Shown one piece after another: positions 41,567 through 47,564 of a stretch of DNA of 64,000 nt (the stretch's first letter is position 1; the number at the start of each line of letters is the position of its first letter). The notes beneath the pieces were generated by a model that was not told the origin of the DNA, did not search any database, and saw nothing but the letters and a program-made list of their open reading frames with translations. This stretch comes from Octopus vulgaris (lineage: Eukaryota), in contig OX597835.1 in NCBI GenBank assembly GCA_951406725.2, forward strand, positions 6,262,001 to 6,326,000, in the 5' to 3' direction. A program made the translations under genes and the position numbers.

Positions 41567-42448
41567 AAGCTTGGCTAAGGGAGGTGACTCTGGAAGATTA
41601 TTGATTTATTGTACAAGAGAATAAAAAATAGTATAAAACACTCCAAATAGGAAGAAATTCGAGGAGAGAACATGGTGGAGGATCTCCGTCGTTCAACGAT
41701 GAAGATTCATTTATTCATTTGCTCAATCAAGTGAAATTCCTGCTCTTGAATTAATGTGTGAGTTTTCCACAGATACGTAGGCGCAGGAGTGGCTGTGTGG
41801 TAAGTAGCTTGCTAAACAACCACATGGTTCCGGGTTCAGTTCTACTGCGTGGCACCTCGGGCAAGTGTCTTCTACTATAGCCTTGGGCCGACCAAAGCCT
41901 TGTGAGTGGATTTGGTAGACGGAAACTGAAAGAAGCCCGTCGTATATATGTACATATATATATATATGCGTATGTGTGTTTGTGTGTCTGTGTTTGTCCC
42001 CCTAGCATTGCTTGACAACCGATGCTGGTGTGTTTATGTCCCCGTTACTTAGCGGTTCGGCAAAAGAGTTCGATAGAATAAATACTGGGCTTACAAAGAA
42101 TAAGTCCCGGGGTTGAGTTGCTCGATTAAAGGCGGTGCTCCAGCATGGCCGCAGTCAAATGACTGAAACAAGTAAAAGAGTAAAGAGAGAGAGAGAAACA
42201 GAGGGAGGGAAAGAGAAAGAAAGAGAGAACTTTTCTTTTTAATCTGTCTCTGTAATATTGATTATAGATTTTGGCACAAGGCCAGCAATTTCGGGAGACT
42301 GGGTAAGTTGACCCCACTGCTCGACTGATGCTTATTTTATCGACCCCGTAAGAATCGCCGACAAAGTTGACCTCGGCGATATTGGAACTCAGAATGTAAA
42401 GACAGACGAAATGCCACGTCTCTGTAATATCAGTATGTCTATATTTTA

Positions 42449-42481
<33 letters not shown>

Positions 42482-42934
42482 AAGAAAGATTAAAAGTTTA
42501 TAGGTTTTATTCAAAAACACGTTATATTAGCAAGAAGCAGAATCGGAATTGCTGTGAGGTGAAGAAGTCCTGAATATCTACCATGACCACAGAAAGGAGG
42601 TAGGATTAAACATGACTGGATCGACACCCTTTGTAAACTGATTTGGCTGCTGTTTCAAGCAGGTCAAGTTACCACATAGAATGCCCCGTGGTAAATGTCA
42701 GTAGGCGTCAAACAAATGTGTAAAAAGAAGCATTGTAAAAAGAGAAGCAGAATTGTCAGATGTCAAAAGAGAAGCAAATTAGTTCGTTGGGATACGAAAT
42801 GTCAGGATTAGTACAGCTTCTGTAAACCAAATCCTCTGGAGACCTGCCCCTGTATGTTAGCAACCCATATTCTTGCCTTAAAGAAATTAGGTGACAACAG
42901 TGCTGTTGCTCCCAACATCGCAACTCTTCCAACC

Positions 42935-43085
42935 ATGTCTGGCATCCAAATTCTCAACCAAAACTATCCTCTTATGGATTCCATCAATTCTCATCTCTTG
43001 GATTGGTAGATTCCTATCAGATCACGTTATCACAGTTCTTTCTGTTTCCGTTCTCTACAAAATCTGGTGTACCCCAAGGTTTATC
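42935..43085 (+). mobile_element. LINE reverse-transcriptase fragment (CR1/Jockey-like)
   Basis: Frameshifted VWHPN..KLSSYGFH..ISWIGRFLSD..ITV..KSGVPQG. Confidence 0.7.
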
Positions 43086-44200
43086 TGTCACCCCATTTTT
43101 TGTAAAAGACACTTGTCAAGGTACCACATAGTGGGATTGAACCCGAAACCTCGTGGTTGGGAAGTATACTTCTAAAGCATACAGTCATGCCAGACTTAGA
43201 AGTCATCGTCATCATTTAATGTCTGTTGTCCTTGCTGACATGGGTTAGACAGTTTAACCAAGGGCTGGTAAACTAAGAGGCTGCACCAGACTCCAGTCTG
43301 ATTTGGTTGGATGCCCTTCCTAACGCCAATATTCAATATGTTATACAGAAACTATGAATCGAAGTGTATCATTGTACAAAACGATACACAAATGGTATTT
43401 CAAAAACATCAAAAGCAGACAAACGTACACTTAAAACATTATTGTTTTATTTGAACGGATTTCTGCACCAACATCTACACCTGTTTACTCCGACACTGCC
43501 AAACTAACAAAATATGAAAGTTGGGTCAAATCATAAGCATAATAATCCCCAACAAAAACACATGTAAAGGTCTCACCTTCATCGTGTATGCTCATCTCTA
43601 TAAACAAACAGTTACGACTTCCGATATGTCTGCACTTGATGCTTGGAATTGGCTAAAATTACATAAATTTAAATGCTTGTAACCTCTTCGTTTATTAATT
43701 TCTAGAAAAAGTAATGCGATTCTTTTCATTCGTATTCAAAACTGCATCAAAATCATATTTTTATATAATATGGTGAGATACTTCAAGCGGTTGGAAGAAA
43801 TTTATCAAAATCTAATTGTCCTGTCCATTTAACCATTTTCAAGACATTGTAGAATAGTAATTGAGGGAGATTTAGCTACAGTTTCTTAGAGGTCGAGAAA
43901 CTACATAGAGGCATTTTCTTTCTTGGTCCAAAACTGCAAATCCAATGGTGGACTACAGTAGTTAAGTGAGTCAGGACAGGAAGATAGTCCTGTAGATCAT
44001 ACTTCATCTTTCATCCAGCTACCGGTATGCCATAATAATTTAAAACTATACAAAAACAACGTTGAGAAAAGCGTAAACACTTTAAAGGATTCTCTATGAT
44101 GTTGTTCTACAAGGAGAGAAACTGCCAACAAAAACCACATTTTTTTGGAAATGTACTTGCATAGCAAGTGATTTGAGATGAGATCGTGTGCTGAAACGAA

Positions 44201-44490
44201 AACAATTGCAGCATGGAAGGTGTTTGTAAGCCATTTAAGAAACACACAAAAGACGTTCGATTTACTTCAACATTTAAGTTTAATTTGTCAAAATATTTTC
44301 GTTGCTATAAGACCGCGACCTGTTCACTGACAAAAATCCGTGCTGCAGCACGGATTTTTGTCAGTGAACAGGTCGCGGTCTTATAGCAACGAAAATATTT
44401 TGACAAATTAAACTTAAATGTTGAAGTAAATCGAACGTCTTTTGTGTGTTTCTTAAATGGCTTACAAACACCTTCCACGCTGCAATTGTT
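44201..44490. mobile_element. Spacerless 290-bp palindrome with one hammerhead motif per strand
   Basis: Centre CTG|CAG at 44345/44346; one mismatch seen in 145-bp arms; motifs at 44357-44407 (+) and 44284-44334 (-). Confidence 0.88.
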
Positions 44491-45174
44491 CACATTTTTT
44501 TGCCTTGTCAGTAATTTAAGTTTAGAATTATATCCCTTATTTATCACTTTAAGAAAAAGTCACGTCCCTTACATTCAGTTCGTATGGATTTTGTTGATGT
44601 GTTGGTAGAGTGGTTAGAAAGGCGGCGAGCTGGCAGAATCGTTAGCGCGCCGGGCGAAATGCTTAGCGGTATTTCGTCTGCCGTTACGTTCTGAGTTCAA
44701 ATTCCGCCGAGGAAAATTGTGGTGAAAGAGTACAGCAGGGATCACCACTACCCTCTGCCGGAGCCACGTGGAGCTTTAGGCGTTTCTGCTCAATAAACAC
44801 TCACAACGCCTGGTCTGGGAATCAAAACCGCGATCCTACGACTGCGAGTCCGCTGCCCTAACCACTGGGCCATTGAGCCTCCACGAATATGTATGTATGC
44901 ATCCACAAATAACTTTCTCAGCATCTTTCTTCCAGTTTCACTTACAAGCTATTTGTTGACTTGCAGAAATGTGCAGAACACTAGCTGAAAGTCCATCCAT
45001 GCACGGGGGATTGCACCCCTAACCACAGGGTCCCAAAGTTCCAAAAAAACTTCTTAACCACACAGCTATGCATCATAAAGAATTAGAGCAAACCAAGTTT
45101 ATTTAAATTTTTCAGTTTATTAAGAAAATTCACAAAAAATCTTAATGTCAAACATCAAAATAAAACAAAATAAA

Positions 45175-45359
45175 ATTATCAACAATCGTACAAACAATAA
45201 CTCTGAGCACCTTTTCAAACTCCACCCATCTAACACCCGTGGACATATTTACAAAGTCAGAAAACAGCACAGCTCCCATGACTTCAGGAAACATTTTTTC
45301 ACGCTGAGAGTTGCTGAAGCATGGAACAAACTGCCGGCATCAGTTGTTAGTTGTCGGAG
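45175..45359 (+). mobile_element. CR1-like LINE ORF2 3' fragment
   Basis: TRGHIYKVRKQHSSHDFRKHFFTLRVAEAWNKLPASVV; near-identical to the copy at 62157-62535. Confidence 0.85.
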
Positions 45360-45448
45360 AAATGATAGAATTATTAAATAAATCTTCCAAGCAAGAGAAT
45401 TAGTTCCTTCATGGGATATTTACAAAGTATCTTTCAAACCAGAATATA

Positions 45449-45659
45449 CGGGGTGTCCATAAATTCATTTGACAATTTGAGAAATTCATAAAAAGACATT
45501 TTTTTCTACTGCAGTTGTACCACTTGCAGCCAAGTTATTTTCTATGAAGATGGCGCACTGCCCATTAGGGGTTGAGTGTTTGGGAGTTTCTTGATGAAAC
45601 TTGCCCAAACCAGTGGATTAGAAGAGGCAATCCAGTTTAGATAATTTATGGACATCCTG
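45449..45659 (+). mobile_element. Internally deleted Tc1/mariner element
   Basis: TA then C(G)GGGTGTCCATAAATT ... AATTTATGGACATCCTG termini; relic EDGA.P and FLDET.PNQWIRRG transposase text. Confidence 0.75.
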
Positions 45660-45807
45660 TCTATGGTTATTCGCTTGTATAAAAACTATTCTGAGAGTAT
45701 TTTGTGTGAATGATTTAGTAGACTCTGCAATGATGAAGCTTTGAATCCCAAAGAACAGGTTTTTGTCTTGAAAGAATGATTAACCAATTAGTACAATGAT
45801 ATGGTTC

Positions 45808-46587
<780 letters not shown>

Positions 46588-47564
46588 TCAAAGACGTTGC
46601 AAAGATCGTAAGATGATTTTAGTAGAATACAATCATTTCTGAAATAACTACACCAAGATAGTTTACAATGATGGAATCTGTCTTATCTTTTGGTAAGAAA
46701 CCAACAAGTGAAATAGAGCTAAAAATAAATATATTTTTCAAAATATAATCCAGGTTTTTTTTTAATTTTGGCAGGGAAAACAATCATATCTTAATGATAA
46801 ATTCGTCCAAATGCAAAAATCATGGTGGACACATTCCACAGGGCGAAACAGAGAAAATCTGCAGTTAATCTCACAGATTAATAAAGTGATACGTGTTCTT
46901 CATAATCTCTTCTGTTGATCTTTAAAAGATGATGATGATGCATCTGAAATAAAAAATAAAAACAATTCTTTTAAGCCAATGTCAAATATTCTGAAATAAT
47001 TCTAGGCACAAGGCCTGAAATTTGAGAGGGGGTTAGTCAAATTCCTCAACTCTGGTGCTCAGTTAGTCCTTATTTTATCAAGACTGAAAGGCAAAGTCAA
47101 TTCTGGTGGCATCTGATCTCAGAATGTAAAGTTGGAAGAAGTACCACTAAACATTTTGTCTGACAAGCCAACTATTTTACCAGCTTACTACCTTAACCCT
47201 TTCGATACCAACCCGGCTCTGGGCTCTGAGTACAAATGCCTTGTTTTCATAAGCTTTGAATTAAAATCTTCCACCAAACCTTAGTTACAATTTATGTTCC
47301 TAACACTAGCTTAATGATAACTAAGTTTAATTACTAAATTCTTCGTTATATTTAAAGTAATTGAAAGAAACACAAGGCATCTCGAAATAAATACAGTAAT
47401 AGGCGCAGGAGTGGCTGTGTGGTAAGTAGCTTGTTTACCAACCACATGGTTCCGGGTTCAGTTCCACTGCGTGGCATCTTGGGCAAGTGTCTTCTGCTAT
47501 AGCCCCGGGCCGACCAATGACTTGTGAGTGGATTTGGTAGACGGAAACTGAAAGAAGCCTGTCG

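Follow-up and report, generated by a model that had tools for sequence, protein, structure and literature searches.

The window analysed here, a stretch of 64,000 nucleotides of Octopus vulgaris DNA (contig OX597835.1, positions 6,262,001 to 6,326,000, forward strand), contains a palindrome in which two complementary arms of 145 nt each adjoin without a spacer and pair throughout except at a single mismatch, 44213/44478. A spacerless palindrome of 290 bp with one mismatch is what the preliminary description of this locus had reported. It is the longest spacerless palindrome of the window, at 145 bp, and the runner-up measures 55 bp. The insertion is larger than the palindrome and runs from approximately 44147 to 44490, with a tail of 54 nt on the left arm only; the right arm is without a tail. 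Three departures from the family majority are common to both arms, one of them found in 0 of 27 other copies, and so the arms either derive from one source or have been homogenised. The features are listed in Table 1. At 1.2 kb to the right of the palindrome, on the minus strand (45709-46587), is an array of 84-bp repeats encoding C2H2 zinc fingers in an open frame of 259 aa.

Table 1. Coordinates of the insertion and its parts, in window positions, with the basis of each assignment
Feature	Positions	Strand	Basis or remark
Left target-site duplication	44136-44147		12 bp, identical to 44491-44502; the last G may be the terminal base of the element
54-nt element tail, left copy only, to the outer of two 3' end points	44147-44200	-	approximately 91-94% match to tails of other copies; 3' ends cluster at two points
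Left arm, 5'-truncated pLTR end of Penelope-like element	44201-44345	-	99% identity to right arm; family search
Mirror hammerhead-like motif, G3 44327, C8 44322	44284-44334	-	mirror of 44357-44407; the sole arm mismatch is outside the motif
Self-complementary TGCA at the junction	44344-44347		sequence; 1-4 nt inside the main 5' end hot spot of the family
Right arm, 5'-truncated pLTR end, reaching no further than the inner 3' end point	44346-44490	+	family search and clustering of 3' ends
Type I minimal hammerhead-like motif, predicted cut after 44400	44357-44407	+	sequence reading, fold prediction
First 11 ORF codons of the element (MAYKHLPRCNC)	44457-44490	+	same frame runs into RT/EN protein in full-length copy L262
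Right target-site duplication	44491-44502		identical to left

The arms belong to a Penelope-like element (PLE), as had been proposed. In long copies of the family, RT, a CX3CX2C linker and GIY-YIG are encoded on the strand of the arm and upstream of it, ending approximately 1 kb before the motif, so that the linked RT and GIY-YIG reading frames which the earlier description had suggested looking for are present. One copy, L241, has an open frame of 1,025 aa with a YVDD motif and a GIY-YIG match of 25.4 bits against a Pfam cut-off of 22.6; for Pfam RVT_1, a fragment gave only a weak match (E 0.052) and the full frame none, and it is by motifs and by 39-52% identity to RT-EN proteins that the RT is recognised. 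Comparison of the ORF with solved structures gave no match. A complete pLTR-ORF-pLTR unit is found in L262, which has direct repeats of 1,118 bp at 98.4% identity, with the motif in both, and an inverted truncated copy of 1,309 bp on its 5' side; its ORF opens with the same codons as the ORF fragment of the right arm. The distance from the motif to the first Met is approximately 100 nt in both pLTRs of this unit, the same layout occurs in L133 and L260, and the ORF begins 57 nt behind the predicted cut. As a separate observation, the first codons of the family at L046 (1892-2635) run on in frame into approximately 215 codons that the flanking DNA supplies and that belong to a fragment of an unrelated protein.

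Under the definitions given in excerpts of Craig et al. 2021 (PMC8557442), a CCHH endonuclease motif and a CX2-5CxxC linker can be read in the translations of L241 and L064. The same excerpts assign to EN+ PLEs of the Neptune/Nematis type a C-terminal GIY-YIG with CCHH, this linker, partial tandems, an inverted 5'-truncated copy, a tail at one end, insertion in TA repeats and TSDs (target-site duplications) of variable length, all of which the octopus family resembles. By its endonuclease, linker, pLTR, inverted copy, tail and TSD we class the element as an EN+ PLE of the Neptune/Nematis type, a likeness of features and not a placement against reference Neptune and Nematis sequences. The linker of the octopus family has a zinc-finger-like motif, which is absent from Penelope/Poseidon. 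The G3:C8 motif described below is not mentioned in the excerpted text of PMC8557442, where the hammerhead descriptors start from CUGANGA.

A search with one arm gave 1,154 candidates in the 2.8-Gb genome, and the 40 that were scored had 96-100% identity. A 21-nt pattern for the core matched 6,572 times and a 24-nt word 3' of the core 10,537 times, with 0 matches for the reversed controls, in agreement with the young, multi-copy family that had been proposed. An inverted partner lies within 300 nt at 38 of 66 loci sampled in genome order, and both cores are head to head at at least 10 of the first 90 loci, so the window locus is not special. At L145 and L165, one arm is of one subfamily and the other of another; not all inversions, therefore, were made from one template. 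The 3' ends of the copies fall at two points, unit positions 145-152 (50) and 199-206 (70), among 131 alignment ends; the outer point coincides with the end of the query, and the flanks nevertheless diverge there. TSDs of 8-14 bp were called at 35 of 93 loci, 3 loci have longer ones in TA repeats, and none was called at the other 55. The palindrome itself is an ordinary, routine insertion product of the family.

Two further observations concern these insertions. Target duplications are mostly 11-13 bp at head-to-head insertions versus 8-11 bp at single-orientation insertions, a difference which may point to two routes by which the second strand is resolved. Six loci (L152, L154, L189, L190, L193, L194) have a common inversion junction, and three of the six have the same called target duplication; here a head-to-head unit seems to have been re-amplified inside a larger repeat.

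A 290-bp palindrome could instead be a DNA transposon of the foldback or MITE type, or its locus could be under selection for a long hairpin RNA. Its arms are nearly perfect, have no spacer and are flanked by a TSD, and the plant microRNA hairpin model MIR7486 scores 66.1 bits, just below its threshold of 67. In addition, four probable RNA runs, flagged as possibly DNA, hold the family as assembled contigs in which opposite-strand joints occur at the same place of the family. We consider both possibilities very improbable. The outer ends of the insertion are unequal, with a tail on one side only, the TSDs measure 8-14 bp or more, and the same arm is also found single, with truncated partners and behind RT/EN ORFs; on these grounds (unequal ends, variable TSD, copies linked to RT) the MITE/foldback class was ruled out. 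The microRNA match was rejected as a reflection of perfect pairing only, and the number of head-to-head loci speaks against a particular role for this one, whether as a foldback element or as a hairpin locus. The family had been called a foldback family earlier, but the palindrome is the known 5'-inverted form of PLE insertion, present at 38/66 of the sampled loci. Fixed TSDs with TIR-transposase partners had also been named as the pattern that would speak against a Penelope-type element; TSDs are present but their length varies across copies and the partner is an RT, so a PLE fits. A non-LTR retrozyme, with head-to-tail tandems of short hammerhead units, was rejected as well, since 0 of 30 sampled loci have a second copy on the same strand.

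For the head-to-head PLE insertion we propose the following course. The template would be a short RNA whose 5' end lies a few bases upstream of the motif, and its reverse transcription from two start sites would give copies with or without the tail. Both strands would be nicked, at a distance of 12 bp, and would serve for priming; the cDNAs begun on opposite strands would then be joined by their ends at the self-complementary TGCA.

Each arm carries a hammerhead-like motif. On the plus strand, stem I is formed by 44357-44363 and 44401-44407 (7/7 pairs), and the core GUGAACA at 44364-44370, with G3 at 44364 and C8 at 44369, is followed by an extra G at 44371. Stem II (44372-44376 with 44386-44390) leads to GAA at 44391-44393, a self-complementary hexamer at 44394-44399 is stem III, and N17 is the U at 44400. 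The positions were re-read on both strands and the earlier account of a 7-bp stem I, GUGAACA, GAA and a palindromic stem III was confirmed. The stem II of that account is present, but each arm has one C-A mismatch in it, leaving 4 of 5 pairs; the pairing G is found at this position in 23 of 27 other close copies. A descriptor of the full motif matches once in the family unit and in 0 of 3,000 dinucleotide shuffles of that unit. In the predicted fold of the monomer, stems I and II form and the core is unpaired. The predicted duplex energy of stem III is only -0.2 kcal/mol, and a predicted fold of two molecules left its bases unpaired. A search of positions 42000-47000 against Rfam, at E values up to 10, returned 12 matches with no hammerhead model among them. 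The core, GUGAACA, departs from the literal CUGANGA and follows the 3-8 pairing rule behind it, and CUGANGA was found in none of the first 100 core matches; a search for that string therefore misses the motif, as had been predicted.

In RNA that reads through the palindrome, a hairpin of 142 bp and -246 kcal/mol is predicted. A read-through RNA of either direction meets the antisense arm first, so masking of the ribozyme in double-stranded RNA, which had been suggested, is the likely outcome both ways. For the same reason the further suggestion that the locus would yield a ribozyme whichever strand is transcribed is unlikely to hold. Because of the mismatch in stem II and the predicted masking, this palindromic copy is probably silent.

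The family as a whole has a core in which positions 3 and 8 are exchanged. When these positions were left free, the first 100 of the 6,572 matches were G:C in 93 cases, C:G in 0 and altered at one of the two positions in 7. Of 27 copies located by their upstream sequence, with the motif left unconstrained, 25 had G:C, and in the probable-RNA contigs of the four runs no variant listed was at position 3 or 8. The family majority has U4, G5, A6, A9, GAAA, U16.1-H17, G10.1:C11.1, the extra base, a palindromic stem III and stems I and II. Loop II varies between subfamilies within the family, with core and stems fixed, and the commonest variant of stem I (9 of 64 parsed copies) keeps a G-U pair. All copies come from a few source elements and, as a result, the 93/100 G:C represent one or a few events, not 93. 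One further locus, L068, was dropped as a probable chance match, having neither stem I nor the flanks of the family.

A sister family in the same genome has the canonical pair. It was located with the canonical pattern, which gave 360 matches versus 69 in the reversed control and samples only some of the C3:G8 families. The sister family itself has 469 matches, the first 100 of which are 89 C:G, 0 G:C, 1 U:A and 10 unpaired. Over 16 nt the two families, TGTC[A/G]-CUGAAGA-GGUC in the sister and TGTCA-GUGAACA-GGUC in the family, differ essentially only at 3 and 8. The sister sits behind the same kind of protein, with 55% protein identity over 815 aa in its intact subfamily, and C:G occupies 3:8 in sister families C, C2 and B. 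Many intact frames of 1,310-1,312 aa occur in one sister family (L260:1133-1176, L251-L261), the motif of which has C3:G8, a C at position 9, where A is conserved, and an imperfect stem III; on account of these frames, it is probably the one amplifying now. The C9 of this intact subfamily hints that the core of these elements may tolerate change.

Other relatives are found in metagenome loci, with the motif just behind the ORF. L133 has C3:G8, L129 has C3:G8 with G4, and L128 and L134 have U3:A8. The extra base and G10.1:C11.1 are common to the four; stem II measures 6 bp in each but differs in sequence, and stem III is fully palindromic in three of the four. These are the 4 that show a complete motif among 11 metagenome loci with related ORFs; none was found in L130, L131 and L138, and L132, L135, L136 and L137 are outside the count, their downstream DNA being lacking or left out. 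Enough downstream DNA was available for 6 relatives, 2 of which (L130, L131) have no complete motif. In L129 (approximately 1690-1730) the change from U4 to G stands in an otherwise complete motif, and L130 (approximately 1060-1095) has CUGACGA and a long stem II with no adjacent GAAA.

With G3:C8 and no C3:G8 in the family, C3:G8 and no G3:C8 in the sister, and C3:G8 or U3:A8 elsewhere, we read the core swap as a genuine compensatory change. The covarying G3:C8 core of the preliminary description is thus borne out, with G:C in the family, C:G in sisters C, C2, B, L133 and L129, and U:A in L128 and L134. The three Watson-Crick pairs at homologous 3:8 positions would represent few independent events. 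The pairs were read family by family, and not through an alignment-based covariation statistic, because MAFFT misaligned 2 of the 7 short motifs. A tree of 11 sequences, built with no named references, left the branching among G:C, C:G and U:A families without order, and so the direction of the change at 3:8 cannot be read from it. We infer that selection on the tertiary pair between 3 and 8 has maintained the swap.

Our principal reading, which we hold with a probability of about 0.7, is that the palindrome is a head-to-head insertion of two PLE 3' ends, each with a G3:C8 motif that is likely still a slow self-cleaving RNA. Published work on hammerheads of other elements bears on self-cleavage. 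Excerpts of PMC11167929 report that, in the element PAc, an engineered C3G/G8C double mutant partly restores hammerhead cleavage and that the PAc ribozyme cut only with the protein of the element; according to those of PMC4209133, cleavage by minimal PLE hammerheads is weak and requires multimers or a longer helix III. For a cut after U17, the octopus RNA would depend on a second copy to complete its weak palindromic stem III, or on assistance from the element's protein, in the way described for PLE hammerheads of other elements. Among 101 copies, 0 begin immediately 3' of the predicted cut and 2 begin within 4 nt of that position, so that cut RNA is not a visible template; in PAc, too, the uncut RNA is the main template (PMC11167929, in part).

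Alternatively, the motif may descend from a hammerhead and no longer cut, its fold being kept for another job (protein binding, RT pausing, or translation control of the ORF 57 nt behind) or G3:C8 being a founder accident of a successful element. The 0/101 copies starting at the cut would fit this, as would the C9 of the intact sister subfamily. Parts of PMC11167929 describe hammerhead mutants of the lizard element that insert normally in vitro and RNA-seq with no reads ending at the cut, and parts of PMC8557442 describe Naiad PLEs that spread without canonical hammerheads. We nevertheless regard a non-cutting motif as rather improbable. It is unlikely that two changes arose by chance which together restore the 3-8 pair exactly and leave U4, G5, A6, A9, GAAA and U16.1 unchanged, and in related families 3:8 is taken by three different Watson-Crick pairs. 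Moreover, the 3-8 pair is a contact of the catalytic core and not a general element of the fold (PMC3088659, in the portions available).

The 5' ends of the copies form a hot spot. Of the motif-bearing copies, 66/73 stop within approximately 20 nt 5' of stem I and 7/73 continue upstream. When copies were found by the downstream word, 33 of 101 ended from -3 to +4 of the first ATG; a peak at +14 among these 101 ends is probably an artefact of subfamily differences. Copies ending at AG-ATG have an extra G one base upstream, where the template has C or T, in 10 of 18 cases (p ~6e-4 at 19% G), and after three that could be explained by the inverted partner were dropped the count was 7/15 (p ~0.014). 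An extra upstream G is a signature of copying of the 5' cap, and the initiator has a sequence signature likewise. The hot spot and the extra G together suggest a short capped template RNA of approximately 205 nt that starts at an initiator-like site.

The hot spot could also be a splice acceptor, with a spliced RNA that has a very short first exon, or a place where RT stalls, and not a start of transcription. Sequence resembling a branch point, a pyrimidine tract and an AG lies just 5' of it, and the intron of Drosophila virilis Penelope ends at the 5' end of hammerhead helix I (PMC4209133, in part). The junction predicted from the most obvious donor has 0 genomic copies, however, and the extra G, in 10/18 of the AG-ATG copies and 7/15 without the ambiguous ones, fits cap copying. 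The probable-RNA contigs contained no splice joint, though that stretch was skipped as a repeat. We judge splicing or stalling to be unlikely, if still a serious contender beside a capped start. Taken jointly, the data allow a wider reading, held tentatively and at somewhat less than even odds: an animal family of more than 6,500 copies has a truly cleaving G3:C8 core beside a C3:G8 sister, most of its copies come from a capped RNA of approximately 205 nt that starts just 5' of the ribozyme, so that the pLTR acts as its own SINE, and censuses based on CUGANGA have missed high-copy families.

Much of this has parallels in known PLEs. The minimal, dimeric type I hammerheads of Cervera and de la Pena 2014 (PMC4209133, excerpts) are alike in pLTR position, type I topology, G10.1:C11.1, the extra base between 9 and 10.1, a palindromic stem III and frequent U17, and their elements, too, occur mostly as solitary truncated copies with some pairs on opposite strands. 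Of the traits named in the preliminary description, the base inserted after A9 and the U at 17 are therefore ordinary in PLE minimal hammerheads. In those excerpts the pair is C3:G8, with U3:A8 in Schistosoma, whereas the octopus family has G3:C8 throughout; its stem I (7 bp) and stem III (6-nt palindrome) are also longer than in most of their examples. In PAc, which Frangieh et al. 2024 (PMC11167929, excerpts) describe as a Poseidon element of the green anole, the hammerhead likewise adjoins the beginning of the ORF; RT starts at two points within the ORF, which determine whether the tail is present, the targets are AT-rich, and both strands undergo cutting and extension. The natural pair of PAc is C3:G8, and the octopus family has by nature what in PAc was engineered as the C3G/G8C mutant; the PAc ORF starts inside stem II, in contrast to 57 nt behind the predicted cut, and the PAc tail is 30-40 nt versus approximately 55 nt in the octopus family. 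Among natural core variants, Perreault et al. 2011 (PMC3088659) also describe compensatory change at 3:8, and the portions of the text available name only U3:A8. In the available parts of PMC3884650 and PMC11167929, G3:C8 appears only as a laboratory variant.

What is new in the octopus family is a PLE minimal hammerhead with G3:C8 across the family; the extra base, palindromic stem III, U17 and inverted insertion were already known. Lunse et al. 2017 is said to be the largest census of PLE hammerheads. Our full-text literature search, which covered neither that census, where a G3:C8 motif could be listed, nor Przybilski and Hammann 2007, returned no report of a natural G3:C8 hammerhead, nor of one in this host group.

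A family-wide G3:C8 together with a C3:G8 sister in the same genome would be natural evidence that selection in PLE hammerheads keeps the pair and not the identity of the bases. The kept pair argues that a catalytically shaped core is still required in these slow motifs, a point of relevance to what PLE hammerheads do, and the two families are a ready pair for comparison at the bench. Descriptors based on CUGANGA undercount animal hammerhead motifs by thousands in the octopus genome alone. Hammerhead-like motifs of the canonical CUGANGA form, in which stem III is palindromic and an extra base follows A9, are themselves present in at least three further repeat families of this genome (L098-L127 and others).
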